From the NCBI GenBank assembly GCA_964016885.1, contig OZ024746.1, positions 66,154,001-66,218,000 on the forward strand: a DNA stretch of 64,000 bases, written 5' to 3'. Each line of letters opens with the position of its first letter. Positions within the stretch are counted from its first letter, which is position 1. The notes beneath the pieces were generated by a model. It ran no database searches and had not been told where the DNA came from. It saw only the letters and a list, made by a program, of their open reading frames with translations. Both the position numbers and the translations under genes were made by a program. Origin of the DNA: Eledone cirrhosa. Taxonomy: Eukaryota. This document shows positions 5,001 through 61,824 of the stretch, piece by piece.

Positions 5001-5666
5001 TGATATGATTTAAATATTTGTTGCTAGGTGTGTATAATTCCATTACTGTGTATATCTTTGTATCATGGTATGGTCTCCATTTCTCCGGGTTCATATTTTG
5101 CATCTCGCAGTTTTTTTTTATTGATTTACAGCACTGCATTGTTTATTTGTCGCGTAAACATTCAGTAATATTATCATTGTGGTTTTGTTCCCCATACTGG
5201 GTGGTTGTCTCTGTTACTATAGTTTCTGTTTGGTGTTCTTATGTGATGTAGAAAACGAGAATTATATCGTGGAGTTTTCGTTTGTATTTGCATGCTGTTT
5301 TCTGTAGTTAGATATTTGCGTCTATTTTCCATGTGTATTTTATATAGTTTGCATTTTTCGATTATTTGTACCATAGTATTTTTATTAATATATTTCCGTA
5401 TGTTTTCTGCTATTTACTGAAAGTTAACACAGTATTCTTTTTGCGTCTATGTTAATTTCCCTTCATCTCTTTTATAATATTTCTGTATGTTGGAGAGAAT
5501 GGTGCGATGTATGATAGAATGCCTAAAAAATAAATACTTAAATATAGCGTTTATTTGTCAAAAGTTTCCTTCTAATATTACTTATATGTTCGACGTTGAC
5601 TTGTCGGCATTAACAACAACAACGACGAAGATTATTATGATGATGATGATGATAATAATAATAATT

Positions 5667-6056
5667 GTTTCTACTTTTGGCACAAGGCCATCAAATTACC
5701 CAGTACATTACTGGTACTTTATTTTATCGACCCCGTAAGGATGAAAGGCAAAGTTAACCTCGGCGGGATGATAATAATAATAATAATAATTGTTTCTACA
5801 TCTGGCACAAGGCCAGTAATTATTCCAGTGCATTACTGGTACTTTATTTTATCGACGCTGTAAGGATGAAAAGCAAAGTTAACCTCGGCTGGATTTGAAC
5901 TCAGAATGGCAAGGGCCGTAACTCTATGCGTCAAAGCATGGCGTCCGACCGAATAATAATAATAATAATTGTTTCTACTTTAGGCACAAGGCCAGCAATT
6001 ACCCAGTGCATTACTGGTACTTTATTTTATCGACCCCGTAAGGATGAAAGGCAAAT
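5667..6056 (-). mobile_element. Three tandem 5'-truncated copies of a tRNA-derived SINE separated by (TAA)n
   Basis: Copies at 5667-5769, 5791-5951 and 5970-6056 share GTTTCTAC..GGCACAAGGCCA..CCAGT.CATTACTGGTACTTTATTTTATCGAC...GTAAGGATGAAA.GCAAA. Confidence 0.9.
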
Positions 6057-7395: not shown

Positions 7396-10300
7396 TGTTC
7401 GTCTACAGCGTGATGGTGCCACGTTAAAACCACCGGGTGTGATGAAACCATACATTCACCAATCCTTGATATGAGTGTTTAAATGTCGAGCCTAAACAGT
7501 TCGAATAACGCTGAAAAGGGAACGGGAACGTCATGTGAAATACTCTCACCCAGCAAGTGCTCCCTGGCCCAGCAGCAGGGACCTGGCTGTCATCCAAACA
7601 CTGCTGGTGTTGGAGAAAGAAGAAGGAAAGGGAGAAGTACCAACTGGACAAAAGAATTGAATAGAACTGTCATGAAATGTTACTTAAAGAGCAACCCCAT
7701 GGGAAAAGGCTATAGGAAACGGATGCATAACATCTGGAACGAGATTAGTCTATTTAAATTAGCTGAACAAAAATTGGCCGGGCAGGCTCGGGTAATAAGA
7801 ACTAATGGATGGATAAGCGATTTGGAACTGGAGGAACTGAGCAGAGAGATTAAGTTGGAAATGGAGAGTGGAGTATGGCAGGCAAACGAGCCAGTGGGAA
7901 ATGAAGGTGAAGAGGTTGAGAGACCCGGGGAAGTATCATCTGAGTGCTGAAATAAATAACATCTGGAACAAAGATACGGCCATTGAGGAAATGAATGCTG
8001 ACGAGCTAGGACAAGATTTAGTTGATATCCTGAACTTAGTGGTAGAAGAAATGACAATGATAGTGGAGAACATATGAAACTAAGATTTGTAGACAGGAAA
8101 AAGTTAAAAGAAATAACAACTAAGGTAAACAAAGTCCTCCCATACCTTGAGGCGAGGAACCTTCTCCAATGCAACAATATCCTCAAAGCAACCGTAAATG
8201 CGGCATAAAAACGAGAGGAAGCTACAAACAAGAAATATCAGAACCTTGGTGGAAGAAACGACTGAATGGTCAAATCAAGGAAATGAGAAAAGACATTGGA
8301 AACTTGAGTCCTTACTGAATGGGACATTACAAAACAGACACTAAAGATAGATTGGAAATAAAGTACAAAACTAGGGTGAAAAAGCTAAATATTATCATAG
8401 AGGATCTGAAGCAACGCATTGTAGCAAAAAGTGCAAAGATTAGGCGGTATGAGAACAGAGTTAGTCAGTATAGACAGAACAGCATGTTTGACAACAACCA
8501 GAAGATGTTGTTTGGACAGCTTGAAGAGAAAGAAAGAGGCATTGATTTGATCCCTAAGGCGGAAGAGACTAAGACATTCTGGAAAGAAATATGGGAGCAG
8601 AATGTTGAACATAATGGTCAGGCACTGTGGATTGAGACAGCTGTTGAAAGGAGATTAGTAAACAAGCAGACCAACAACCTGATTTGAGTATCACAGTTGA
8701 AACTCTTAAAGGGCAGGCCAAAAAACTAACCAACTGGAAATCACCAGGCCCAGATGCTGTGCAAGGGTATTGGATTAAACATATAACATCCCTCCACCCG
8801 AAACTGACAACCATGTTCAATGACTGCTTGATGTCGGGTGAAGTACCAGAGTGGTTGAAAAAAGGTTCCATAGTTCTGGTAATGAAAGACAGAATCAAGG
8901 GTAATGGTGTTACCAAATATAGGCCTATCACATGCCTGTCCGTAATGTGGAAACCGTTAACAAACATTGTGTCTGAGGAAATCTACCATCACCTCCACAT
9001 AAACCACTTGTTACCGGACGAAATGAAAGGATGCCGAAAGAAGTCGCGTGGTACAAAAGACCTGTTACTTATTGATAAGATGGTAATGAGGAATTGGAAG
9101 AGGATACACACTGGTCTTGCCATGGGATGGATAGATTACAATAAAGGCATTTGACATGGTACCTCATTCTTGGATAACCAAAAGCCTAGACATCTTCAAG
9201 GTGGCAGATAACATCAGACAGTTGTTGAGCAAAAGTATGAAGTCCTGGGAAATAGAGTTAACATCGATTGAAGAATCCTTGGGAGGCGTGAAGATCAAGA
9301 GAGGAATCTTCCATGGAGATAATCTGTCCCTTCTGCTGTTTGTCCTTGCCCTGATACCCCTGTCCGTTACATTGCGAAGAGTTAGAGCAGGATACAAGTT
9401 GAGAGCTTTTCATCAACCACCTCCTCTTCACGGACGATCTCTAAGCTCTTTGGGAAAAGGGATAAGTATTTGGATGTACTTGTTGAGACTGTCCCTATTT
9501 TCAGCAATGATATATGTATGGAATTTGGTATTAATAAGTGTGGAGCCCTAGTGATGAAGGGTGGTAAATTGAGCAGAAGTAACGGAATCCAGGTAGCAAC
9601 AGGTGAGATGATAAAGGAAATTGACACTGAAGAGGGATACAAATATCTAGGTGTTCTGGAAACAGATGACATCAAGAACAAAAAAATGAAGGAATTGATA
9701 AGATCTGAATACATAAGGAGAGTAAGGAACATATTAAAGTCACATCTGAACAGTAGGAATGCCATAAGTGCAGTAAATTCCTGAGCTGTGTCTATTATTA
9801 TGGACAGTGCGGGAATTCTGAGATGGAATGTTGTTAAACAAATAAGAAATGGATAGGAAGACATTGTAATGAAGGATAAGACACTAGACCAGGGGATGCC
9901 CAAGAAGGAAATAACAGCAAGGACGAAGAGCAACCTTCATGAAAAATCCCTTCATAGCACTTAAAACGGAATTTAGAGATCCACGGACATGGAACTCCTT
10001 AAAAATAGGAGACCTTTACAAAGCGACAGAAGGAATGCTAATGGCTGCGCAAGAGCAAGCCCTCAGAACGAAGTGGGTGAAACACCATATTGACAAGAAG
10101 GAAGCTAGCTTACTGTGTAGGATCTGTGGAGAGATAGAGGAGACTGTGGCTCACATTGTATCCGAGTGTAAACATCTAGCCCAGACTCACTATATAGTCT
10201 GGAGACATGATGTGATAGGCAGGGTGCTCCAATGCAAAGTAAACAATTTACCACCTTCTGAACAGTGGTATGAGCATAAGCCAGAGTCGGTGAAAGAAAA

Positions 10301-10733
10301 TGATCAGGTGAAGGTGTTATGGGATTTTAGATACAGACGGACAAGAAATTAGAACACAATAGGCTTGATCTTATGGTTTTGGACAAGGAAAGAAGATCGT
10401 GCCTGATTGTAGATGTAGCCTGCCCATTTGACACGAGAGTGGAAGAAAAGGAGAGGGAGAAAATTAACCGATACCAGGATTTAAAGTGGGAGGTAAAAAG
10501 GATTTGGCACTGCCATAGAATCAAGGTCGTAGGCGCACTACGTACTATCTCAAAGAGTTTCCAATGATGGTTAAAGAAGATTAGTCTAGCTCCGCTTTTT
10601 GGAACACTTCAAAAGGCATGCTTGCTGAATCCTCCGATACGTCCTGAATGTCTGAGGCTGCAAGTAGCGGCTTGATATTCATTTCAACAAACTTTCCAGT
10701 TAAATAACGTCAATGACTGAGACCTAAAGAACA
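7396..10733 (+). mobile_element. Near full-length R4/Dong-clade non-LTR retrotransposon (RT + CCHC + RLE endonuclease), ORF disrupted
   Basis: N-terminal WTKELN..VMKCY..GYRKRMHNIW; RT WKSPGPD, YRPITCL, GWIDY, RGIFHGDNLS, YKYLG; CRICG..ETVAHIVSEC; RHD; LIVDVACPFD..EKINRYQDL; ends in (AAT)n; stops, frameshifts and an internal deletion near 9862 relative to the 13.6-kb copy. Confidence 0.92.
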
Positions 10734-10745
10734 ATAATAATAATG

Positions 10746-10930
10746 GTTTCTACTTTAGGCACAAGGCCAGCAACTACCCAGTGCATTACTGGTACTTTAT
10801 TTTATCGACCCCCGTAAGGATGAAAGGCAAAGTCAACCTCGGCGGGATTTGAACTCAGATCGTAAAGGGACGTAACTATGCTGGAAAGCATGGCGTCCGA
10901 CCCTCTACCGATACTGCCAATCCACCGCCT
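10746..10930 (-). mobile_element. Full-length tRNA-derived SINE with 23-bp TSD
   Basis: Minus strand has A-box-like TGGCAGTATCGG and B-box GAGTTCAAATCC; CCTAAAGAACAATAATAATAATG at 10723-10745 and 10928-10950. Confidence 0.92.
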
Positions 10931-10971
10931 AAAGAACAATAATAATAATGATTATTATTACTACTATTATT

Positions 10972-12420
10972 ACAGTTGCATCTTGCTTTATGTTCACACG
11001 AGTAATCACCAAGTCACAACCAGTGACCAAAAGAGACAACTATGTCAGCCATTTTCAAGAAAGAACATACATACACACACATGCATCTTAAGGTGTTTAG
11101 ACTTGTGATGTACTTATATGTATACTTAGTATATGGGCAGTTCCCATTAGTACTATCTTTTGTATTTCTTCTATACGTGGGTTTCCTGGGATTTGCGATA
11201 AGTAATCATTAGACCCCTTAGGTATCATTCCTAGAGCGCCTTCAACCACTGGTTTTGTTTTACATCTCAATTTCCACAATTTTTCAATTTCTATCTTCAG
11301 GTCCTTATGCTTGCTCAATTTTTCAAATGTTTTTATAGATACATTCTTGTCTATTGGAACGGACATATTAATTATCATGCATACACTTTTTTAAAGTCCT
11401 TCAGTATTATATCAGGTCTATATGCATCTATTTTTCGGAATGTTTGGATGCTAAAGTTCCACAAGATTGAGATGTAATCTTTTTCAAGTACGGGAGGTGG
11501 CTGATGCTCTCACCAATTCTTTTGATGGGGCAGGTCAAATTGCTTACCCACTATCCAATGCATGTATCGTGTAGCTCTGTCGTGCCTGTTTAGGTATTTG
11601 GTTGGAGCTATAGGACTGCACATTGAAATTATATGATCAATGGTCTCTGGTTGTTTTTTACATGCACGGCATAATGGGTTGCATCCATTTTTTATTAGGC
11701 TGGCTTGGTCATTTTTAGTTGGCAGACACTGATCTTGTGCTGATATAATCAGTCATTCAGTCTCCGATTTCATTCCAGAGGATGCCAACCACTGTTAGCT
11801 CTTTCTGGGTATTTTCCATACAGAGGCTTTTCTTGCCACTTATTAGCCAGTTTCTGTAGCAGTTCTTTCTTTGCAGTTATTTTTATCTGCTTTGCTTTTT
11901 CTGTGTTTTTCCTTTCAGCAGTAAATGGAACTTTTGAAATGTGTAGTCCATTACTGTATCTTCGTGCATCTTTTGTAATGGAGTATGGTCTTTTGATTCT
12001 TTCGTGTTTCAAAACGAATTTGATCATCCAGCATGTGATTCCCTTAGATATGTAGATAATCCAATTGTTGCAGTTTTCAACGCAATATCTAACTGCATTA
12101 ACCCATGTCCTCCTTCTTTCCTAGGGAGATATATTCTATCTGTATCTGCCTTAGGGTGATGCATTCTGTGCATGGTTAAGAATTTTCTAATTTTTTTATA
12201 GAGCCTACGGATCTCTGTGCTTGACCAGTTGGTGACAGTGTAACTGTAGGTTACTACTTGTATGGCAAGCGTGTTAATGGCATCGATCATGTTCCTTGCA
12301 TTCAATTCCATTCTTAAGATTGCTCTCACTCTGCGGTAACATTCCTTCCTTATCCTTTCCCTCATTGTCGAGTGCTTGATTCCGACTTCTTCATAAACAC
12401 CTAGATATTTGTAAATATTA
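10972..12420 (-). mobile_element. Second, divergent R4/Dong-type family, 5'-truncated
   Basis: YKYLG; KECYRRVRAIL..LNARNMIDAINT; HPKADTDRIYLPRKEGGHGL; RLE C-terminus INMSVPIDKN..EKLSKHKDLKIEIEKLW..GALG; 3' end in (TAA)n, tail-to-tail with the 7.4-10.7-kb copy. Confidence 0.88.
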
Positions 12421-12436
12421 TTATTATTATTATCTT

Positions 12437-12705
12437 GAGGAGAGGGGTGCTCTCCCTGGGTGCCCTAGAAGCGCAGGGTGGTTCAGGATTGGTGGGATAC
12501 TCGAGTCACCCCAGGGTCGTCCACCCCCTATCGGTGAATTTATTTTCTTATATTTATGCATAGTTTATTTTATATATTTATATCTTCATTGTTAAATTAG
12601 TCTTGCCATTGTGCACTTTTACTCGAACTTATTATAAACCCTCACTGTCCCTGTTTTTGTATTGTCAACTACATGTCGGCCCTTGTGGCTAATAAATGAA
12701 ATCAT
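12437..12705 (+). mobile_element. 3' UTR fragment of an L1/Tx1-type element
   Basis: Ends CCCTTGTGGCTAATAAATGAAATC(ATT)n, matching the 3' end of the 6.1-kb element; (TTA)n on both sides. Confidence 0.7.
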
Positions 12706-12721
12706 TATTATTATTATTATC

Positions 12722-14460
12722 ATTCTTTTAGTCTCAGTCATTGATGTTATTTAACTGGAATGTTTGTTGAAATGAATATCAAGCCACTACCTGCAGCCTC
12801 AGATATTCAGGACGCATAGGAGGGTTCTTGCTGTTCCCTGCACGCATGCCTTTTGAAGTGTTCCAAAAAGCGGGGCTGGACTAATTTTCTTTACCCATCC
12901 TTGGAAACTCTTTGAGATTGTACCTAGTGCGCCTATGACAATCGGGACCACTTTGACCTCATGGCAGTTCCAAATCCTTTTTACCTCCCACTTTAAATCC
13001 TGGTATCAGTTAATTTTCTCCCTCTCCTTTTCTTGCACTCTCGTGTCAAATGGGCAGCTACGTCTACAGTCAGGCATGATCTTTTTTGCTTGTCCCAAAC
13101 CACTAGGTCAGGCTTCTTGTGTTCCGGTCTCTTGTCCGTCTGTATCTAAAATCCCATAGCACCTTCACCTGATCGTTTTCTATCAGCGACTCTGGCTTAT
13201 GATCAAACCAATTCTAGAATGTGGTAAATTGCTTACTTTGCATAGGTACCAGTGGATAACCCTGCCCATCACATCATGTCTCACGCCTTTATAGTGAGTC
13301 TGGGCTAGGCGTTTACAGTCGGATACAATGTGAGCCACAGTCCCCTCTCTCACTCCACAGATCCTACACAGTGGGATAGCCTCCTTCTTGTAAATATGGT
13401 GTTCCAGCCACTTCATTTTGATGGCCTGCTCTTGCGCAGCCACAACATTCCTTCTGTAGCCTTTTTAAGGTCTCCTCTTTTCAACCAGTTACATGTCCAT
13501 GGATCTCTGAATTCAGTTTTCTCAAAGAAGCTACTATGAAGGGATTTTTCATGAATGTTGCTCTTTCTCCTTGTTGTTATTTCCTCCTTGGACATCCCCT
13601 GGTCTATTGTCTTATCCTTCAGTACAATTCTGAGCATTGGTTCCCTACTATCAGTCACGTATTTGTGTAGGTTGTTTTTCTCCATCTGAACACAATCCTC
13701 TATGCTGATAAGACCTCTTCCACCTTCAGATCTCCTTAAGTAGAGTCTATCGACATCACTCCTCTTGTGGAACATGCTATAGATAGTCAATAGCTTCCTA
13801 GTCTTCCTATCCATTTCTTTTTGTTCAGCAACATTCCATCTCAGAATTCCCGCACTGCACCTAATAATAGACACAGCTCGGGAATTTACTGCACTTATGG
13901 CATTCCTACTGTTCAGATGTGATTTTAATACGCTCCTTACTCTCTGAATATATTCAGTTCTTATCAATTCCTTCATTATATTGTTCTTAATGTCATCAGC
14001 CTCAAGAACACAGAAATATTTGTATCCTTCTTCAGTGTCAATTTCTTTTATCATCTCACCTGATGGTACCTGCATTCCGTTGCTTCTGCTCAAGGACTCC
14101 ACACTTACTAATATCAAATTGCATATATATATATCATTGCTGAAAATACGGACAGTGTCAACAAGCACATCCATGATCGTCCTTGTAGAGGAGGTGATTG
14201 ATGGTAAGCTCTCCCTTTCCCAACTTGTATCCTGCTCTCACTTTTCGCAGTATAATGGTCAGGGGCATCAGGGCAAAGGCAAAACACAGAGGGGACAGAC
14301 TATCTCCCTGGAAGATACCTCTATTGATCTTCACGCCTACCAAGGATTCTCCAGCCGATGTCAACTCTGTTTTCCAGGACTTCATACTTTTGCTCAACAA
14401 CTGCCTGATGTTATCTCCCACCTTGAAGATCTCTAGGCTTTTGGTGATCCAAGAATGAGT
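12722..14460 (-). mobile_element. R4/Dong copy (same family as 7.4-10.7 kb), 5'-truncated
   Basis: RGIFQGDSLSP, HLLYKDD, SDVDRLYLRRSEGGRGL, CRICG..TVAHIVSDC; 3' end GACTGAGACTAAAAGAATG(ATA)n. Confidence 0.92.
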
Positions 14461-14500
14461 TATTATTATTATCATTATTGTTATTATTATTATTATTATT

Positions 14501-14684
14501 AGGTGGATTAGCAGTATCGGGAGAGGGTCGCAGGCCATGCTTTGATGCATAGAGTCACGGGTCTTGCCATTCTGAGTTCAAATCCCGCCGAGGTTAACTT
14601 TGCCTTTCATCCTTACGGGTTCGATAACATAAAGTACCAGTAATACACTGGTTATTTGCTGGCCTTGTGCCAAAAGTAGAAACA
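14501..14684 (+). mobile_element. tRNA-derived SINE within (TTA)n
   Basis: Reverse complement of the 10.75-kb copy; ends GTAGAAAC then (ATT)n. Confidence 0.9.
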
Positions 14685-14709
14685 ATTATTATTATTATTG
14701 CAGACTATT

Positions 14710-20700: not shown

Positions 20701-21035
20701 GTATGGGTTATATCGAACATTAATAATTATGTTCGATTCGTTTGTAAACAAACGGCCCAATTTGAAGCCGGGCCGAGCCGGTGACCCAGCGTCACCTGTT
20801 TTGAGGAACAATCAACATTTATCTGGGTCATTAAGTTTCATCAGGACTGTATATCTCTGCCAGTCTGTTGAATGGTTGAAAATATATAGTATTTGTTTAA
20901 GTACACATCGGCTGAGTAGCTTCATTTTCATACCGAACGAGTTACGGTTGGCCTTGCCGAAATATGTATATTGATATATAGGTAGATAGATATAATGTTA
21001 GAAATATTGATATATGGATATTTAGTTAGGCAGAC

Positions 21036-21096
<61 letters not shown>

Positions 21097-21102
<6 letters not shown>

Positions 21103-23305
21103 TACTTTGGGAGGGTCATGTTGCCAATAAGAAACACACGCACCAGTTCCTTTCACTTCAATTTATTATAATAAATTTATAAATTTAGGAATTTATAAAT
21201 TTCCGGTTGGTTGGTTGGTTCCACAACCAGATGGTTGTTTATATATTGTTTAAAGTGCTTTCGTCACACATTATGTAACGTCTTCAGTGACTGGGATTCT
21301 TTTCTTTGTTTTTGTGCCTCTCCTTTGTTCTGTCCTACGCCATCTTGTTTCTGTGTGTGTGGTGTGTGCTCAGTCTGCGCATGCGCCACATCCGGGTGTC
21401 TGTGTGTGTTTATATTCGTTTATTTATTTGTTTATTTACATGTTACAGGTTGGTTGTTTGTTCTATGTGCGTGTGTGTTTTCATTTTGTCCTTAATTGTA
21501 AGTTGTAATGTTGCTGTTCCACTCATATTTTCTATTTAATTTTGGTTGTAATTCTTTTATGTTTATTGCCTCTGTGATTTGTCTAAACATTACGTCTTTC
21601 CTGTGTGTAGATTCTATTTTTTTCTATGTTCTCTAATTTACCCTTATGTTCTATTTTAGCATGTTGGTAGAGTACAGATGATTCTTTACTATCTTGAAGG
21701 TCTCGCCAGTGTTCATTTATCCGTTCCCCTACACTACCAGCTGTCTCACCTATGTACACTATATTTTTGTCTCTACATTGTCCTACTGTACATCTTCTGC
21801 CATATACACTACACTTCTAGTTTTACAGTTAATATGGGGGCTTAATTTACAGGTTATACATTTCTTATCTATACAGGTGGGGGGTCTTGAAAAGGGTATG
21901 TCTTGCTAATAAGTGTTTTTACGGAGGTACCTGGTCTTTCTACTATCTTAATATTGAGTTTATGTTTATCTAGGGCCCTTCTAAATTTGTAAGCTAATTC
22001 ACCTCTAGGCTTTGTATCGATGAACATTACACTCTGGTATTTATTGCTATCATACCATGATTTTATTCTATTAGCCTTATTCCTAGTTCTTTCTATTCTA
22101 TTCCAAAATTTGCTCCTATAGAAGGGGCAGGTCCCATTTGTGTCATTATTTACCATTTTTTCCCATTTGGTTCTGGCTCCTATATACAATCTGATTCTAT
22201 CTCTCTGATTGTAACCAGAGAACTGCATACGGTGGATGAAGTGTTGTATGTGTCTCTCTACTTCTTCTGGGTTCCACATGCGGGACACGTTTCTCATCAC
22301 CCGTACCAAATACGCAATCAGTATGTTGATTTTGGTATGGTCCGAAACAGCTGAGTTTCGGTGGATCAGATATTTGGAAGTCATGGGTTTGACATAATGG
22401 GAATGGAGGATTTGTTTTTTGTTATTAATGGTATCTAACCAGAGCTCTGTGTCTAGTACAGGTAATCGATGGTTAGGGTGTTTACTTGGGTAGTCTATAG
22501 TAACTCTAATACTCTGGTGGATGGAGTTAGCTATTTGCTGGATGCTTTCCATTGTGTTTTTCTCTAATTCCTGACTGTTCTCTAGTGGGGGTGTTTTAAC
22601 TAAAATGTTTATATCATCAACGTAGCGGGAGTACATTATCAGGGTTAAGGGGTCTTCTAATTGTTCTTTAAGTTTAAGTTTAAGTTTAAGTCTACTGTCC
22701 TACCATGAATAAGTTAGCTATGTCGCCTGCAATGCTAACACCAATGGCTGCTCCTTCCTCTTGGGCATATGTTTTTCCATTAAATTTGAACATATGTTCC
22801 TTAAGGGTTAATTTTATGCTGGCCCCCACCGCATGTGCAATCATTTTCTTTAGTTCATCGTGGTTTTCGGGTGCCCGTATGACTCTGGTCCACCCGTTCC
22901 ATCTATCTTTGTGGGTTTTCTTGGCCATTGAGGTAATGGTAGGTGGTCTGCCTCTTGCTGGTCTTGTAGGGCACAGGTTGCTATGGTCATATGTGTCTAG
23001 GTAATTATTACTATAGGTAAGTTTAAGTAGGAGTCCCAGCTCACTGGTATCAATCCCACGGAACTCAACATTGCTCTCACTGATCATTTCAACCATCATT
23101 TCAACCATCTGGTTGTGGAACCAACCAACCAACCGGAAATTTATAAATTCCTAAATTTATAAATTTATTATAATAAATTGAAGTGAAAGCAACTGGTGCG
23201 TGTGTTTCTTATTGGCAACATGACCCTCCCAAAGTCTAACAATATCGGTATCCAACACACGTTTTCAGATAAAGAATCTTGCTAAACAAATTCAGAAACG
23301 AAATA
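21097..23305 (-). mobile_element. Penelope-like element family A: RT + GIY-YIG remnant, 3' pLTR and inverted 5' pLTR segment
   Basis: RT FKFNGKTYAQEEGAAIG..IANLFM (22692-23100), YSRYVDD, LPVLD, HYVKP (21869-22636); GIY-YIG NCKTRSVVY..C...VYIGETAGSVGERINEH (~21705-21840); 23104-23243 is the reverse complement of 21097-21237; (TA)n on both sides. Confidence 0.9.
21249..21291 (-). ncRNA. Minimal type I HHR in family A pLTR (degenerate stem I)
   Basis: GUCA-CUGAAGA-CGUUACAUAAUGUGUGAC-GAAA-GCAC-UU. Confidence 0.6.
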
Positions 23306-23337
23306 TATATATATATACATATATATAAAGATATATA

Positions 23338-23735
23338 AGTGGTTACACAACAGTTAGTTCACCATACCGAGAACAATTGTTTCATCTTAACGGCTTCTCA
23401 GCTCGTAATGAACATGGTTATAGGAACAGGAAGGACAACCGTACGAACACGCATGCCCAGAAACGATCACTTCACACAGGCAATACTAAATTGCGTGCGA
23501 GAGGCGAAATTCCAAAAGTTTCTAGTTGATAAGAAAATTAGGATGTTGTAATTCAATCCGGAGCTTTGCAGTTATGCAAGAGGTGTTTCCAGACTTGTGG
23601 ACAACGTGTTAAGAATTCATTATTCGTGTTTATGTAATCACTATTGCGTAATCTCATTAGAATATTTATTCGTTCATCAATACATAGTCCACACGACGGT
23701 GCTCTACCACTACGGATATTACTTTCTAGTGTTCT

Positions 23736-33337: not shown

Positions 33338-33450
33338 TATGGAGATATAAAAGATACAGAAGCAAAAACCAAACCAAACCAAACCAAACAGTGAGTGTGT
33401 TCAGTTATTATTTCTGTCAATATTATATCAATATCACCCTCCCCAAGTAT

Positions 33451-33456
<6 letters not shown>
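33338..33456 (+). mobile_element. Family A-related PLE tail
   Basis: Ends ATCACCCTCCCCAAGTATAACAAT(AT)n; inverted homologue at ~44032-44118. Confidence 0.65.
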
Positions 33457-33493
<37 letters not shown>

Positions 33494-33970: not shown

Positions 33971-34093
33971 GTATATATATATATGTATAAGAACATAATA
34001 TAATATGGTTTAATCCATATATATATATATATATATGGATTAAACCATATTATAGTATGTTCTTAATGGAAACAACGTTTTACTAAAATAACT

Positions 34094-34274
34094 GTTTCTA
34101 CTTTAGGCACAGGGCCAGCAATTATCCCAGTGTATTACTGGTACTTTATTTTATCGACCCCGTAAGGATTAAAGGCACAGTTAACCTCGGCAGGATTTGA
34201 ACTCAGAATGGCAAGGGCCGTAACTCTATGTGTCAAAGCATGGCGTCCGACCCTCTACCGATACTGCCAATCCA
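34094..34274 (-). mobile_element. tRNA-derived SINE with 10-bp TSD
   Basis: TAAAATAACT at 34084-34093 and 34275-34284. Confidence 0.9.
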
Positions 34275-35387
34275 TAAAATAACTTTAGTTATAATAATCA
34301 TTACACTAAACGGTAGTTTATATTAATATCACAACCAGACTGACAACTTTATCCTGTGGAAAGAGAACATTGCTATATATGACGGACTGCGTAAATAGCA
34401 TTGATTTGGGTAAATTGCAACGGCTATTCTCTAGTGTAAGTCTGAAGGTCATAATTCAGCTTCTGATAGGGAATAATTTTCATATCCTTCAGCGTGCATG
34501 TCACTGTTTATATCGCGTTTGCTCATACATTAATAAAATATTCACTGATATATTGATTTCTTTCAGCACGTAGCAGAAAATCTCAAATTGTTTTTTAGAA
34601 GTCCTAATGAAATTAATGATATTATACTAAATTCACTATACGTGAAAATGGATCTCAGACTTGAGTCGCCAGAAGTGACACAAAGGGAGCTAAAATCTTG
34701 AATATGGCTATATACCTTATTAGGCTACCAAATATCCCTTAAAAGGCTTCCAAATGTCCTATGAACAGCACACCACTGTTTAGAAAAAGAAACACCAGCG
34801 AACAGTGTTATCCTAGAGTCACTATTTCAAAATAAATGGCAGCATGCTGTCAACTGTAACGGCTTTTAATTATACGTCTGATCGACTAGGACTGACATAA
34901 CCTGAACAGTATTAATAATAACTAATCAATCAAATTTACTCACAGAGAAGATGAGATTGGTTCATTGATAAAAGATAACAGATCTTAAATCCGATATCTG
35001 CATATTCCGGCAGAAAGAAAACTACGTCACTATATGAGATTACACTACACGTAGATGGTATCTGTCAATAAATAAATGTTATTACTAGTGTTATAACACA
35101 AATGAATTAAAACACCCAATCGTTTATGACGCGACGGTGTTAATTAATATATAGATATAAAGGTCAATAGATATATTAATAGATAGAAATGTAAATCAAT
35201 AGGAACACGAAACCAATGTAGACAAAATAAAAATGAATAATGAGGTTTCATATATTAGGATAGTGGGTGTATATGCATATGTATATATACACACACACAC
35301 GGGCGCGCGTAAGAAAAAGGCAAGCACACACACACGCATGCTCGCACATACACACACACACACATATATATATATATATTTATATAT

Positions 35388-35606: not shown

Positions 35607-35985
35607 TGGGGAGGGAGGGACATATTTGTGTACTATTGCCAGAATTATGTTGTGTATATTTAGGAGGAAACACAGTGTTTTAAGAAGCGGGTTTGTTCTG
35701 TTGTTATTGTAGTTTTTATAAAACAGAAAACACTGTCTTTCAATAACCTTTCAGCTTGGCACAAGCTAATGCCATGACGGCGATGAATTAGTTTTGCGAG
35801 GTTTTTGATATGAAATCGTGTGTCGAAACAAATATTGTTATACTTGGGGAGGGTCATATTTGTGTAATATTGCCAGAATTAAATCTGGCAATATTACACA
35901 AATATGACCCTCCCCAAGTATAACAATATTTATTTCGACACACGATTTCATATAAAAAACCTCGCAAAACTAATTCATCGCCGTT
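35607..35985. mobile_element. Family A-related fold-back containing the PLE ORF N-terminus
   Basis: Inverted repeat centred at ~35881; minus-strand ORF MTLPKYNNICFDTRFHIKNLAKLIHRR..., homologous to MTLPKYNNIGFNTRF.IKNLAKQIQKR at 23220 and 49598. Confidence 0.75.
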
Positions 35986-40380: not shown

Positions 40381-40439
40381 TATTCTTTCGTTGCTTTTAT
40401 TTTCTGTTCTATAGAGCTTGTGTTATTTAATATTATTTA

Positions 40440-40619
40440 GGTGAATTGGCAGTATCGGTAGAGAGTTGGATTATGCTTTCCAGCATAGTTACGTCCCTTT
40501 ACGATCTGAGTTCAATTCCCGTCGAGGTTAACTTTGCCTTTCATCCTTACGGGGTCGATAAAATAAAGTACCAGTAATGTGCTGGGATAAGTGCTGGCCT
40601 TGTGCTAAAAGTAGAAACA
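40440..40619 (+). mobile_element. tRNA-derived SINE with 18-bp TSD
   Basis: GTTATTTAATATTATTTA at 40422-40439 and 40620-40637. Confidence 0.92.
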
Positions 40620-42547
40620 GTTATTTAATATTATTTATTATGTAATTTTCCTTATAGTTAATCACACAATTTTACTGAAGTAAGTACTCCACAGTATTTA
40701 CTTCTGCATGTTTCTATTTATATCTTTGTAAAATCCCAAATATATTGGCCCCTTGTAACCAAGAAACGAAATCATTATAATTATCATAACGTAAGCGGAC
40801 TCATCACTTCAGTAATGTGGTTGAAGCGGACTTGCTCTCAATATGTTCATTCTTGGCTGCAGTGGTACCAAAGACAAAACATAAAGGAGTGAGGAGAGAA
40901 GACATCCAGATAGACCAATCGTTCGACATGGACATTTTCTGGTTTGTCATTTCAAATTGACCACCGAAATGATGCCGCTTTTGAACCTCGTAATCCAGCG
41001 ACAACAGATGATACATCAACTATAAAGAGTTATCATAATGCTACAGAATATTCACATCAATATCGCATTGCCTTATAAAAAGCTGAAAAATAATAAACTC
41101 GCTTGCTGTATGTAATACAAGATTTAGCTAGTTATAAAATTTCACGAAATGTTTGTGATATACCTGCGTCACGAGTAAGCGAAAACAGTGTATATAAAAC
41201 ATACAAAAAGTTCCCATTGATTTTTATTGCTCTCCATAAAAATGTTTATTGATGTCAATATGTAAATACAAATATAAATAGTTAGATAGTATAATTGAGT
41301 AGGCTGTTTCTTGCCTTATACCATCGACATTAGTATACGTATGCGCGTGTTGTTAGTCAATATGCGTGGTGTGTGCGTATTTGTGTCTGTGCTTTACATG
41401 CATGCATTCATTTGGTAAAATACAAGTATTATCAGAAGAAGTCGATTTTAGCCATCAATATCTCATAAAATTTAAGATCCACATAGATTGATTATATGTT
41501 TTTTGAAAATATTAAATTTGTATTCATTTTAAGTTTAGTAGATTTTTCCTGTCAGTATAATACACTATTTGCAACAATTATAATACTATATATATGGAGA
41601 AAGAAATATCTGAGAATAATTTTATTTTAATATTATAATTAATTTTGGTCATAAGACCCGTGATTTTCAAACTTTAGTTGTTTTTTAATCAATCAATTCT
41701 TGCAAATATATATGGCAAGATATATGCCACATAACGTATCGGATAGTTCTGGTGCTCTATAACCAAAATACAGAGCAAACATTTCTGACAAAATATCATA
41801 TATTTCCCATCGATAATGTGAGTAATGTTGAGACATGTCTACCGCACAATTTTAGGAGAATTCATACATACTTACTATCTAAGAGATAATGTTTTAGTCC
41901 TATCGAATATGAAGCGTAAAACAATGGAAATCGTAATGTTATTTATTCGATTTAATTCAATATCTCATATAGAAATACTTGCGGATCATTGTCATCAGAA
42001 AATACACCAGAAATGAATAAGAATCTAAAAGAAAATAATCACAATCGCAAAGTATACAAGATACTATGTTATTTGTATAAAGCATTAACATCAGATATTA
42101 AAGTGAAAGCTTCAACATTCCTATAGAAGAGAGCTAAAGAAAATGCAACGTGAGCAGCAAAGTAATTTTGATATTAGTTCTGACTTAATATTTTTCATTC
42201 GCATTTACTTTCTAAATTCAAATGTATAAGAGAAACTTCCAAATGTATATTACAGATTCACTTACATGTTACGCTGATCTTGAATACACGGAACTATATC
42301 GAATACAGAAAAAACACGTCACCAACGAAAGCTAAATATAAATATATTGATAGAATATTCAATTCTCTGCATTAACGAAACACAGTACAAATAATTGATG
42401 ATACATTTGAACAGGATGCATAGATGCAGTCATGCCTATATGCATACATATATATATATGTGTGTGTGTGTTTGTGTGTATGTGTGTGTATGTGCATGTG
42501 TGTGTGTGTGTGTGTGAATATATTCATGTGTACGTTTATGTGCATGC

Positions 42548-44149: not shown

Positions 44150-44671
<522 letters not shown>

Positions 44672-44724
44672 AGAAAGTGAGGCTTTTTTTACAGAATGAA
44701 AAATAACCGTATATATATATATAT

Positions 44725-44779
<55 letters not shown>

Positions 44780-44780
44780 A

Positions 44781-44850
<70 letters not shown>

Positions 44851-44852
<2 letters not shown>

Positions 44853-45066
44853 TATTAGAAAGTGAGGCTTTTTTTACAGAATGAAAAATAACCGTGGTGT
44901 CCTACACGAGTGAAAGTATAAAGAAAAAAAGATGAAATCAAAAATGGAACTGGAGTCTTATTTTTTTTAAAATATATATATTTATTTGGTTCCGTTACCG
45001 GTTGCGCAGTTCTTCTGCTTTTCAAAAGTAGAGTTAAGATGGAGGGTCTGTGATTTTTCTCACATC
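44851..45066 (-). mobile_element. Family B (Neptune-like) PLE terminal fragment
   Basis: Matches 56063-56271 and the reverse complement of 61326-61537; a ~42-bp copy of the extreme end is at 44668-44710. Confidence 0.8.
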
Positions 45067-45279
45067 TATATATATAGTTTCCATTTATTAATATCATTGA
45101 TATTAATATATATATATTGATATACTGATATATATATATCAATGATATTAACAAATGGAAACTATCTTTATAAAACCTTATTTATTTTATTATATATATT
45201 TCAAGGGTACCAACATTTTTTTACGCTCTCATCAGATAAAATAAAAAGTTATTTCATAAATAGTGATACCTTTTTTTAG

Positions 45280-48170: not shown

Positions 48171-48312
48171 CGAATACATATTCATTTGAAATTCATGTGG
48201 CATAAAAGTAAATATTTCATTACTAATCAGGGCAGGATGTATATGTAGTGTAAAATAACATTTATATACATTATACTTATTGCTTATCCTCATGAGATTA
48301 TATTAAATCATT

Positions 48313-48498
48313 GTTTCTACTTTTGCCACAAGGCCACCAATTATCCCAGTGTATTACTGGTACTTTACTTTATCGATCCTGTAAGGATGAAAGGCAAAGT
48401 TAACCTTGGCGGGATTTGAACTCAGATCATAAAGGGGCGTAACTCTATGCTGCAAAGCATGGCGTCCGACCATCTACCGATACTGCCAATCCACCGCC
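48313..48498 (-). mobile_element. tRNA-derived SINE, full length
   Basis: Same family as the 10.75-kb copy. Confidence 0.9.
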
Positions 48499-49246
48499 GT
48501 TATATTATAGTAAATAATGATCCTTAAAGACAATGCTTCGCAACGACATTTGATATGTTCACTTCCTGTTGCGTACACCTATATAGTAAATACATTTCTA
48601 ATCAATCACACTCTTTTCCTATTGAAAACAAAAATACCCACTTTGCGGCAATGCATTTTATATTCATTCCATTGAAAAGTAATTTTCTTAATTTAGAATT
48701 TGTTTTCGTTTTAAAAATCAATAGTTTTTAGAAGCATATGCCATTATCTTTTTCAATAGCCAATCATTTATTATTTTATTGTGACTCAAATAGAGCTAAC
48801 GACTTACAATTCAGGATGTTCATAATAAGTTATCTATACAAACCGTTTGTAGACAAGTGCGGTTCATTTACAATGCTATTGTTTTCAGTTGGTATACGAC
48901 TGGCACTACCTATAACCTTTGTAGCACATTTCCCGAACTGTCATATATGATTAATGCTTTTGATTCACAATCCTAATTAATTACAGGGCAATGCCTACAA
49001 AATGTAAATCCGGGGTATCGACCTAAAATTTGCAAAATACTGTACTCAGCTAAAGACACTCATTTTACAAATTTTGTTTCTACGAGAAAAGATCTTTGCA
49101 GAAGTTGCCACAAAAAAAAAAAAAATTAAAATACAACATCAGGTTTATACTTGAGCATCTACACCATCACTTACAAATGTATGCCATGAACGACAATTAT
49201 CTAAGAAAAATAAATGTTATGTATATATATATTGTTATGTATATAT

Positions 49247-49680
49247 ATTGTTATACTTTGGGAGGGTCATGTTGCCAATAAGAAACACACGCACCAGTTG
49301 TACACTTCAATTTATATTTATAAATTTATAAATTTAGGAATTTATAAATTTCAGGTTGGCTGGTTGGTTCCACAACCAGATGATTGTTTATATAGTGTCA
49401 AAGTTCTTTCGTCACACATACCGTGACCTCTTCAGTGACTGAGGATTATTTTCTTTGTTTTTGTTTTGACAATATATAAACAATCATCTGGTTGTGGAAC
49501 CAATAACCCAACCGGAAATTTATAAATTCCTAAATTTATAAATTTATTATAATAAATTGAAGTGAAACAACTGGTACGTGTGTTTCTTATTGGCAACATG
49601 ACCCTCCCAAAGTATAACAATATCGGTTTCAACACACGTTTTAGATAAAGAACCTTGCTAAACAAATTCAGAAACGAAAT
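49247..49680. mobile_element. Family A non-coding fold-back (two inverted pLTR segments)
   Basis: 49247-49401 and 49466-49621 are inverted copies; left arm carries the HHR; TA-rich or (TA)n flanks. Confidence 0.88.
49397..49439 (-). ncRNA. Minimal type I HHR (family A)
   Basis: GUCA-CUGAAGA-GGUCACGGUAUGUGUGAC-GAAA-GAAC-UU/UGAC; same fold at 55822-55864. Confidence 0.75.
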
Positions 49681-49768: not shown

Positions 49769-50047
49769 AAATATAGTCATCCTTATGATGATAAGTATAA
49801 TAATAATAATAGTTGAAAATGGAGGAGATAGCCCACTTCACTTGGAGACAGTTATATCTACTGTGGTATAAGTAGGCTATATGCATTTGGTAACGTTTCT
49901 TGGTGTCACATGTTCTTAACTTTGTGTTCACGCTGGATTAAAATGTTTAAACATTTCACACCATTGTGTCTGCCTCAAGTAATTCAACTAGCATCCGCTA
50001 TATTGCTGCTAGAACATCGATTTATACTATCATTATTATTATTATTA

Positions 50048-51190
50048 TTGTTCGTTGAGTCTCAGTCATTGATGTTATTTAACTTGAAAGTTTGTTGAAA
50101 TGAATATCAAGTCGCTACCTGCAGCCTCAGATATTCAGGACGTATCGGACGGTTCTTGCTGTTCCCAGCAATCATGCCTTTTGAAGTGTTAAAAAAAAAC
50201 GGGGCTGGACTGATCTTCTTTAACCATCCTTGGAAACTTTTTGAGATAGTACCTAGTGCGCCTATGACAATCGGGGACGACCTTGATCTCATGGCACTTC
50301 CAAATCAGTTTTATCTCCCACTTTAAGTCCTGGTATCGGTTAATTTTCTCCCTCTCCTTTTCTTGCACTCTCGTGTCTAATGAGCAGGCTACATCTACAA
50401 TCGGGCACGATCTTTTTCCTTGTCAAAAACCACTTGGCCTGACCTGTTGTGTTCTAATTTCTTGCCCGTCTGTATCCTAAAATCCCATAGTACCTTCATC
50501 TGATCGTTTTCTATCACCGTCTCTAGCTTATGCTCATACCACTTCTCAGAATGTGGTAAGTTGTTTAGTTTTCATAGATGCCAGTGAATCCCCTTTCCTA
50601 TCGGATCATGTCTCCAGCTTTTATAGTTTACACTTAGATACAATGTGAGCCACATTCTCCTCCCTCTGTCTCCACAGATCCTACACAGTGAGCTAGCCTC
50701 TCCTTGTCAATATAGTGTTTCACCCACTTCCTTCTGACGGCTTGCTCTTGCGCAGCCATTAGCATTCTTTCTGTAGCTTTTTAAGGTCTCCTCTTTTTAA
50801 CCAGTTTCATTCTGTGGATCTCTGAATTCCAGTTTCTTAAAGCAGGTGCTATGAAGGGATTTTTCATTAAGGTTGCTCTTCCTCCTTGCTGTTATTTCTT
50901 CCTTGGACATCCCTTGTTCTATTGTCTTCTCCTTCAGTACAATTTTCTGCATTGGCTCCCTACTGTCAGACACATATTTGTGCAGGTTGCTTTTCTCCAG
51001 CGGAACACAGTCCTCTTTGCTGATAAGACCTCTTTCACTTTCGGATGTTTTTAAGTAGAGTCTATCAACATCACTCTTCTTGTTGAACATACTGTAGATA
51101 GTCATTAGCGTCCTAGTCTTTCTATCCATTTCTTTTTGTTCAGTAACATTCCATTTCAGAATTCCAGTACTATACGTAATAATAGACATA
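50048..51190 (-). mobile_element. Third R4/Dong copy, 5'-truncated; SINE 3' fragment adjacent at 51192-51250
   Basis: [27 protein letters not shown]; PIVIGALGTISK; 3' end GACTGAGACTCAACGAAC(AAT)n. Confidence 0.9.
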
Positions 51191-51263
51191 TAATAAAGTA
51201 CCTGTAATACACTGGGATATTGCTGACCTTGTGCCAAAAGTAGATACAATTATTATTATAATC

Positions 51264-51305
<42 letters not shown>

Positions 51306-55669: not shown

Positions 55670-58550
<2,881 letters not shown>

Positions 58551-59719: not shown

Positions 59720-61325
59720 TTATATATATAAAATTCTAAATTCAATTTTGAAACAGTAGATAATTGTTTAATTTACTTATATTTTCGAAATGGAAGTAAA
59801 GATTTGACTGGACATCATGCAGCACTGTTATGCGAAAATTGGTATATTTTGTAACGCTTTTGCTGATGTAATCATACGATGCAATCACAATCCTATCTGC
59901 AATTAATTATTGCTACTGACAGATATCAATACATATTATCTCACACATACTTTCCTTTCATTCTTTAAAGTTTAATTTTATTTTTCTACCATATACATCT
60001 CCTAAATACGGAGAATGTATAATATGAAAAATAAAAGTGCAAATAAAAGGGCAATTATTGTTAGATACTGTGATATTTATTATGTATTTTGTGTAATTCA
60101 AACTAATTTTATGTATGTATAGTATATTGATACGCGTAACGATATTTGAGAAATTAACTGTTTATATGAAGTGTTACATCAATATATCATCATTTACTAT
60201 CCCGTAACTCACTCCTAGAGGAGTCGTAGATGCGCTGTGTGGAATACGGCATTTCTAGGGCATATTTATAAACCTTGTGGAATTACTGCAGATTGCCTCC
60301 AGAGAACGATAGAGAGAGAGACATAGAATGGAAATGAGAAAGAGATATAGATGAAAGTAGATTGTTACATTTAAATCGAACTTTAATGAACGACAGGCAA
60401 ATTTGACCCCGGCTAGATTTGAAATCAGAGAGCAGACGGCGTAATCGAACGCCGTTGGAGACGGACGAATGCTTCAAAAACATTATTTTTACCCGTTCCC
60501 ATGCCGCTTTAGTTTTGTTTGATTTGGGAACATCAACGTATTACATAATGATGCTCTCTGATGAGATCACAGGACTGGTTACGTAAAATCTTGCGGTCAA
60601 GATCGTCATAGAAATATGTATCACATTTTATCAATAAAGAACTCTTTACCATCTACAACAAACTTCAATGTTTTCTTATTCTAAATATACCCCGTCATTC
60701 TCACATGGAAGAAGCAGCATGACGCAGTTTGCTTGAATGTAATTGCATAAATGTTTACTGTAATTATATATAAATACATGTTCGTAATTACGCAATACGA
60801 ACTTTATCCGTAAGCATGTGCATCGATGCTTGTAACAACACATTACATATATAACTATATATGAAGGATACTTGGTCGAGTTCAAATTTTGTTTTATTTC
60901 TTAACGATAGTTAAATTGATTTTATTTTAATTCCTGACATAGAAATTTTAAATAATCATTAATTTTCGTTCCCTGATATGTTGACTTAATTTAATCACAA
61001 TAAAGCGAACAAGATACGATTTTCAATAAGGATTGCTGACATCAAAAATATATATCCGACACAAAGCGAGACACGCTAAAAATATATATAACTCACATGC
61101 TCATCAATAATTTGATTGTGTATTTATCAATTTTATACGCATAGAAAAATAATTGAAACCTCTTGTGACTGAAATTCCTTAATCAGCAGTATCCGTCAAT
61201 GTGATGCGGGAATAGTTTACTTGTTGTACATATCCATATGATAAAATATATATGTATTGAATAGAAAACTGCTAGGTCGATAAGTAGATTCTTATTACTT
61301 ATAGTCAGAATTATATATATATATA

Positions 61326-61537
61326 CAGATGTGAGAAAAACCACAGACCCTCCACCTCAACTCTACTTTTGAAAAGCAGAAGAACTGCGAAACTGGTAAA
61401 GGTACCAAATAAATATATATATATATTTGTTTAAATAAGACTCCAGTCGGATTTTCGATTTCATCTTTCTTTATACTTTCACTCGTGTAGGATACCTCGG
61501 TTATTTTTCATTTTGTAAAAAAAACATCACTTTCTAA
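61326..61537 (+). mobile_element. Family B PLE terminal fragment with variant HHR
   Basis: Reverse complement of 56063-56271; (TA)n on both sides. Confidence 0.82.
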
Positions 61538-61727
61538 TATATATATATATATATATTTAAAACAAAACAGATTAAAGTTTAAGCAAAGAATCACTGCTGT
61601 CACCTTTCACGGGATTTTCTGGAAATGTTTATTTTAATAATTATTTGCGCTAGGGTTCTTATATATTTGATATATATTTATCCTTATCGAGTCCTCTTTG
61701 GATTTTAGTCTTCAAATTTATTATTAT

Positions 61728-61806
<79 letters not shown>

Positions 61807-61824
61807 TGTGTGTGTATATATCTT

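Follow-up and report, generated by a model that had tools for sequence, protein, structure and literature searches.

A 64,000-nt stretch of the Eledone cirrhosa genome (the window, to which all coordinates below refer) carries three insertions of one repeat family, here called family A, and the question raised by this locus is how a single insertion comes to have two different, fixed ends in inverted orientation. An earlier note made from the letters of the window had described one outward end (site S) and, opposite it, a second, inverted end (site L), both next to (TA)n, and this arrangement is seen at all three insertions: the S ends face left at 21099, 49250 and 55673, and the L ends face right at 23291-23303, 49667-49679 and 55960-55972. 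Both sites lie inside the start of an open reading frame, at about codons 7 and 28, and the distance between them, given in that note as about 60 nt, measures 62 nt. These 62 nt (codons 8-28) are the known "tail" of Penelope-like retrotransposons (PLEs).

S ends read ..GTATAAC(AA) and then (TA)n, where the element itself continues AATAT, giving an overlap with (TA)n of up to 4 nt; the TAT microhomology proposed for this endpoint is thereby confirmed. The AA placed before (TA)n at this end holds in general but is absent at 21099. L ends read TTCAGAAACGAAA and then (TA)n; the element continues CAT at this point and the usual overlap at the junction is about 1 nt. The L motif has three matches in the window, compared with 0.10 expected from shuffles.

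The insertions in the window and the element they derive from

Insertion 1 lies directly to the right of a (TA)n target (21037..21098, no strand). Its S-ended arm (21099..23101, minus strand) contains the 3' part of the ORF and a pseudo-LTR (pLTR), is 5'-truncated at about -2010 from S and is 92% identical to L221, a full-length natural copy. Within this arm are the broken coding remnants of a reverse transcriptase (RT, with YVDD) and of a GIY-YIG domain at the C terminus (21583..23093, minus strand) and, about 210-180 nt upstream of S, a hammerhead-like motif read from the sequence (CUGAAGA, stem II and GAAA; 21245..21295, minus strand). The inverted L-ended arm (23102..23303, plus strand) extends from about -163 to +62 and includes the ORF start (MTLPK.., 23220..23303, plus strand), with S at 23240 and the 62-nt tail running to L at 23303. 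Insertion 2 consists of an S-ended arm (49250..49464, minus strand) and an inverted L-ended arm (49465..49679, plus strand), which differ at 9 of ~154 positions. Insertion 3 has an S-ended arm with a hammerhead-like motif (55673..55955, minus strand) and an L stub of 14 bp (55959..55972, plus strand) followed by (TA)n. The inverted arms measure 202, 215 and about 14 bp, in agreement with the ~200, ~215 and ~15 bp given earlier. Descent of the three loci from one duplicated ancestral insertion was rejected, as their 200-bp flanks do not match and their arm lengths and junctions differ.

A family B insertion with the same layout is found at 35608..35984 (no strand): its left end is S-like, and its right end is a tailed L end that falls at the same codon position. 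Family B is also present at 36-124 and 33393-33473, and a read-through piece of the ORF start is retained in the copy at 35.6 kb. Other dispersed repeat families in the window lie at 5635-6055, 9160-14699, 34086-34298, 40421-40641, 48284-48517 and 50029-51272, and at 44572-45076, 55970-56273 and 61318-61821; one of these families also adjoins (TA)n directly to the right of insertion 3.

Family A is a PLE with an RT, a C-terminal GIY-YIG endonuclease (EN), a hammerhead-like motif and (TA)n targets. In the copy L221, an inverted L arm is followed by a pLTR, an ORF of ~1230 aa and a second pLTR that ends at S; it is a read-through copy, in which the frame of the ORF start continues into the ~1230-aa ORF. 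Its two pLTRs, which are partial tandems, are 97% identical over 666 nt. Three features of EN+ PLEs are found in family A: a single ORF with RT and C-terminal GIY-YIG and pLTRs from partial tandems together with an inverted 5' copy, both seen in L221, and a tail extension (here 62 nt) at one end, inside the ORF start. When pieces of the L221 ORF were compared with Pfam, RVT_1 was matched with an E-value of 6.3e-5 (below the curated cut-off) and GIY-YIG with an E-value of 1.4e-5 (above the curated cut-off); a Pfam search with the whole L221 protein gave no match, and comparison with PDB sequences gave weak matches only (I-TevI catalytic domain, E-value: 0.1). The GIY-YIG remnant of insertion 1 has an E-value of 0.0035. 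In translation, L221 has a CX4CX2C linker before the EN and a CCHH motif (two Cys between the GIY and YIG equivalents and two later His). A CX2-5CxxC linker and a CCHH motif in the EN are assigned to the Neptune/Nematis clade (PMC8557442); both are present in family A, and these motifs would place it with these elements. A C-terminal GIY-YIG with CCHH, the linker and a (TA)n bias are shared with Neptune/Nematis-type EN+ PLEs (PMC8557442).

The closest named homologue of the L221 protein is from Octopus vulgaris (68%), and nearly all of its 119 homologues are unnamed entries. A piece of the O. vulgaris model P0108 ("dynein regulatory complex subunit 6-like") is 77% identical to the ORF over 20% of the query and is either an exonised element or an annotation artefact. 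The RT in the L221 ORF is preceded by a long, in-frame, Asn/Thr/His-rich stretch of low complexity that recalls the N-rich inserts of Adineta Penelopes (PMC3846280). Adjoining this Penelope copy, at L221:1660-2710 on the minus strand, are broken ORFs of an unrelated LINE-like RT element.

In the L221 pLTR, a CUGAUGA core and stem II are visible in the sequence and in the predicted fold about 210-180 nt upstream of S. An Rfam search of positions 21000-23400 of the window identified no hammerhead, giving just chance matches driven by (TA)n, and folding of the pLTR/ORF-start RNA predicted no significant structure around S and L (z -1.58). A recurrent 5' end is observed ~260-290 nt upstream of S in both arms and in single arms at many of the loci L121-L278, and this position is possibly a transcription start in the pLTR. 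Among the listed sequencing runs that contain the ORF-start sequence, two RNA runs contribute only a small share.

Endpoints and pairing across the genome

The earlier note had predicted that the ends of family A would form two sharp peaks genome-wide, paired in inverted orientation with variable internal junctions, and this is the pattern that was observed. Exact patterns identified 11,170 S ends and 10,625 L ends in the 3.0-Gb genome. A letter other than T follows L at 228 loci; of 30 examined, one reads on into the ORF and most of the others still adjoin (TA)n or (CA)n. A pattern located upstream of S identified 27,289 arms, and in a hand count of the first 100 of these, 44 end at S, 1 ends elsewhere and 55 run through the tail as far as it was displayed (about +49). 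Among 62 L partners collected with no preselection for L, 46 have the exact canonical end, 7 end 2 nt earlier and the remaining 9 have point changes or ends within 10 nt. Where L ends are shifted (by -2 to -9 nt or +2 nt), it is to places with a TA overlap.

Pairs were counted among the first 100 S and 97 L places of contig C1. This sample represents the first 45 Mb of one contig, and exact patterns favour young copies. Outward-facing neighbours within 6 kb comprised 43 S/L, 3 L/L and 1 S/S pairs, compared with 0.66 S/L pairs under random placement, and within 10 kb S/L pairs made up 44 of 49 outward pairs (p 4e-9 against 50%). Two apparent S/S neighbour pairs proved on inspection to be separate insertions or TA-flanked single arms. 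Following 100 consecutive S-ended loci, 73 were found to have an inverted L partner (62 by BLAST, 9 as L stubs and 2 by inspection), 2 an S partner and 25 no resolved partner (a single arm, an interruption or a gap). The loci L194/L199 and L191/L192 look duplicated, and without them the count of L and S partners is 71 and 2. The exact S pattern left 57 L loci unpaired; an S partner is present at 25 of these, 27 have no resolved partner and 5 entries represent 3 insertions with an L partner. The exceptions to the S/L rule are three L/L and two S/S insertions. For the partnerless loci (25 of 100 S-anchored and 27 of 57 L-anchored), either one site acts alone or the partner has been lost. At L032, L156 and L299, separate insertions are stacked in one (TA)n tract with their ends facing each other across the repeat, and such stacks include family A beside family B.

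A similar pairing is observed in family B, a related PLE whose ORF start and S site are those of family A and whose tail sequence differs: among the first 100 of 6,553 arms, 14 of 15 outward pairs are S/tail. The family B tail ends at two places, about +49 and +62.

Arm structure and shared RNA edits

The lengths of the two arms were compared in 84 simple pairs, from which complex and duplicate loci had been dropped. The S arm extends more than 30 nt further 5' in 45 pairs (more than 100 nt in 26) and the L arm does so in 17, while 22 pairs agree within 30 nt. Arms of equal length (within 20 nt) occur in 21 pairs, compared with 5.3 by permutation. L stubs of 10-20 nt are common, and 18 of the 84 L arms stay inside the tail; except in these 18, the two arms overlap in sequence. 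The pairs thus do not take the form of twin priming seen in L1, which has non-overlapping arms and an internal deletion. In 45 of 84 pairs the S arm is the longer one while the tail is present only in the L arm, so that neither arm is a copy of the other. Where the S arm is longer, each arm has sequence that the other lacks, and a simple fold-back, whichever site it started from, would need a later deletion.

At 76 junctions, an overlap of at least 1 nt was found in 39 and filler in 26 (raw counts). Most junctions are unique and few recur (L194/L199 and L191/L192); L320 is a perfect palindrome with identical arms. Hammerhead cleavage as the determinant of the junctions was unsupported, as the commonest junction bins lie near -40, -100 and -280, not at -180. 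Most flanks are pure (TA)n, in which target duplications cannot show. A scan of 94 loci flagged 21, most of which were pure TA or the element's own letters, and 4 were kept as informative duplications of 12-14 bp (L158, L250, L255 and L274), to which L321 can be added. Duplications of this size would fit a staggered cut leaving two 3' overhangs.

Partner arms were compared directly in the 21 pairs with enough overlap (5 more were skipped). Divergence is 2.4% within insertions and 7.5% between them (0 of 20,000 permutations), and an arm's own partner is its best match in 14 of the 21 pairs. Three of the sampled insertions are A-to-G hypermutated in the sense direction, and no arm T-to-C hypermutated in that direction was found among 996 matches. 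Of 20 edited candidates that were fetched, 9 entered the count of shared edits alongside L157 and L272; the other 11 were single-armed, had too little overlap or were not clearly edited. The two arms have 97 of 97 edits in common in L320, 35 of 35 in L321 and 105 of 108/110 in L272. In L322, 51 of 52/54 are shared and 92 more lie in 782 nt present only in the S arm; in L325, 12 of 13/12 are shared and 17 more lie in the L-only part. In L224, a tandem unit puts S ~4 kb downstream of L; here the L arm has 39 of 39/41 sites in common with the S arm's internal pLTR, not with its terminal one. When the best 40 candidates were scored, L157 and L272 each had a private edit pattern, with next-best values of 86% and 85%. 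The few edits counted in L314, L315 and L324 may reflect differences between subfamilies.

Edited A's avoid a 5' G (0.18, compared with ~0.4 for A or T) and favour a 3' G (0.46, compared with ~0.3), these values being approximate. Avoidance of a 5' G with preference for a 3' G is the ADAR signature. Private edits that are common to both arms and extend into arm-specific sequence make it likely, from these sequence patterns, that one edited sense RNA was the template of both arms. Alternatively, the shared edits may derive from gene conversion between the arms after insertion.

ADAR-like A-to-G bursts are present in L157, L224, L272, L309, L312, L313, L318, L320-L322 and L325. In these copies, 39-46% of A's upstream of -140 are edited, compared with 10 of 231 in -66..-1 (all in L309, a copy without an S arm) and 1 of 308 in the tail, a contrast that is partly biased because edited copies were chosen by their upstream edits. 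The tail may simply be unpaired, while the clean -66..-1 zone suggests protein protection or selection.

Candidate mechanisms and relation to known systems

It is probable that a staggered cut in (TA)n leaves two 3' ends that both prime on a single sense RNA, the one at S and the other at L, and that the two cDNAs are then joined. The GIY-YIG domain would nick both strands of the (TA)n target. One overhang would pair with AUAU at S over up to 4 bp, and the other would start at L with ~1 bp; because pairing at L is limited to ~1 bp, its position is probably set by protein or RNA structure. S would probably be primed first, leaving the tail free, and RT primed at L would often stall in the tail or displace the first cDNA. 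The two same-sense cDNAs could then anneal at self-complementary or inverted-repeat sites, or be end-joined, to give equal or unequal arms; if they join at palindromic or inverted microhomologies, this step would in itself tend to give equal arms. The 17 of 84 pairs with a longer L arm strain a strict S-first order. Other points that count against this reading are the loci without a resolved partner, the L/L and S/S insertions, the junctions with filler and the absence of strand bias in the start sites of the Poseidon element PAc. The earlier proposal that each side of a GIY-YIG cut primes its own cDNA and that the cDNAs are joined is partly supported: priming of both cut ends is the best-supported model, although inferred from sequence, and the edits add that both cDNAs likely come from one RNA molecule.

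The arm lengths bear on an unlikely alternative, in which a cDNA is primed at L, folds over to copy its own sequence up to S and joins the other target end via ATAT, with a later uneven deletion at the centre of the palindrome that shortens either arm. Such a fold-back explains the S/L asymmetry, the microhomology confined to S and the shared edits, and both it and gene conversion would also produce the excess of equal arms and the perfect palindrome of L320. It predicts, however, that the S arm is never longer at birth, contrary to what is seen in more than half of the 84 pairs, and it does not account for the common L stubs, for the 782 nt of L322 edited in the S arm only, or for L224, in which the sequence ~4 kb downstream cannot be contained in a cDNA primed at L. 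If instead the endonuclease cut DNA or an RNA:DNA intermediate at two staggered sites 62 nt apart, fixed and asymmetric ends would follow from its geometry without dual RT starts. Endonuclease cutting has been suggested as the source of the tail (PMC8557442), and the D. virilis endonuclease needs the tail for recognition (summarised in PMC11167929). This explanation is nevertheless improbable: the in vitro RT starts of a Poseidon element, PAc, coincide with the ends of its genomic tail (PMC11167929), the shifted L ends at TA overlaps and the two L positions of family B fit priming better, and a stagger of 62 nt is, in our judgement, long for a nickase.

The pairing counts and the edits weigh on the two other explanations. 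Two RNAs, or two successive insertions, could supply the arms, with gene conversion homogenising them later. There are single-armed copies of both kinds, S and L, a dimer is predicted for the PAc protein (PMC11167929) and the arms of insertion 2 differ at the 9 positions given above, all of which suit this dual priming. Independent choice of site would, however, give 50% S/L pairs and not the proportion counted within 10 kb; private edits are common to both arms over all of their overlap and extend beyond it into sequence specific to one arm, and the L arm of L224 matches the internal pLTR, so that we regard this origin as very improbable. Self-priming on an antisense RNA, as hypothesised in PMC3846280, or retrotransposition of palindromic transcripts as a unit is compatible with the palindromic junction of L320 and with the few junctions that recur. 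Under either process, at least one arm should carry T-to-C changes when read in the sense direction, but all hypermutation detected was A-to-G, and most junctions are unique; already contradicted for the edited insertions, it is the explanation to which we give hardly any credence. As judged from sequence, the private edits shared by the two arms of an insertion, also where each arm has stretches missing from the other, make twin priming from a single sense RNA the preferred explanation, ahead of fold-back, of two RNAs and of an antisense template.

Much of the structure described here has precedents. That inverted 5' segments are known in PLEs, as the earlier note stated, is correct, an inverted arm having been published (PMC8557442 and PMC3846280). 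The second fixed site, which the note regarded as the notable point, is already known: two RT starts bounding the tail have been found in vitro in Poseidon (PMC11167929). A tail at one end of inverted pLTRs has also been described (PMC3846280 and PMC8557442), so that tail, inverted arm, one-ended tail and two RT start sites are all published and the second site is not new. Family A shares with the PLE insertions of PMC3846280 and PMC8557442 a head-to-head, inverted, 5'-truncated arm and a one-ended tail, as well as a pLTR and tail that include the ORF start, (TA)n targeting, target duplications and palindromic junctions. The tails in these sources are 30-40 nt in length, compared with 62 nt in family A; the one-end rule is here counted (73 to 2) and extended to two families, and the edit polarity contradicts the antisense self-priming model of PMC3846280.

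As shown in vitro by Frangieh et al. 2024 (PMC11167929), the PAc protein of a Poseidon element cuts both strands and extends them, using two internal RT starts that bound the tail. Like family A, PAc has two starts in the ORF start with the tail between them, an AT-rich target, little homology at the start sites and an upstream hammerhead (in family A a hammerhead-like motif); Poseidon lacks the CX4CX2C linker present in family A. In the available portion of that source, the two sites are not linked to the two ends of one insertion or to an inverted arm. No difference in start site between strands was seen in PAc, a result that does not account for the S/L asymmetry. Twin and dual priming of L1 are described in PMC2837659. 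As in L1 twin priming, both target ends would prime on one RNA, and the product would be a pair of inverted fragments flanked by a target duplication. The second site of L1 is internal and found by annealing, with an internal deletion between the arms (PMC2837659), whereas in family A both sites are fixed and 62 nt apart, the arms overlap and pairing is the majority outcome.

Near-obligate S/L pairing, one-RNA evidence or twin priming in PLEs was not found in the literature searched, a search that key older papers lie outside; passages of PMC12910113 and of bioRxiv 10.64898/2026.07.22.740005 contributed nothing to these points. What is new here is the near-obligate, asymmetric S/L pairing together with evidence pointing to one RNA, which would amount to a testable mechanistic variant. 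Both PMC8557442 and PMC3846280 treat the origin of the tandem and inverted structures of PLEs as an open question, and PMC11167929 leaves the steps that follow priming unvalidated. The S/L rule and the edits, which act as bar codes of the RNA, unite the tail, the inverted arm and the two RT starts in one model, and twin priming from two fixed starts would explain the long-known and unexplained shape of PLE insertions. The in vitro system that already exists would allow a direct test of the model, which argues against antisense self-priming. Whether programmed, asymmetric twin priming, with one RNP using two fixed starts (one per cut strand), is the normal route of EN+ PLEs seems to us evenly balanced. 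If it is, the tail would serve to space a dimer's two RT active sites, the inverted pLTR would be the second cDNA, and PLEs would use a distinct mode of target-primed reverse transcription in which both ends are sealed by reverse transcription. For Eledone cirrhosa, the model implies that tens of thousands of palindromes, and hence hairpin RNAs, would be routine products in its genome.
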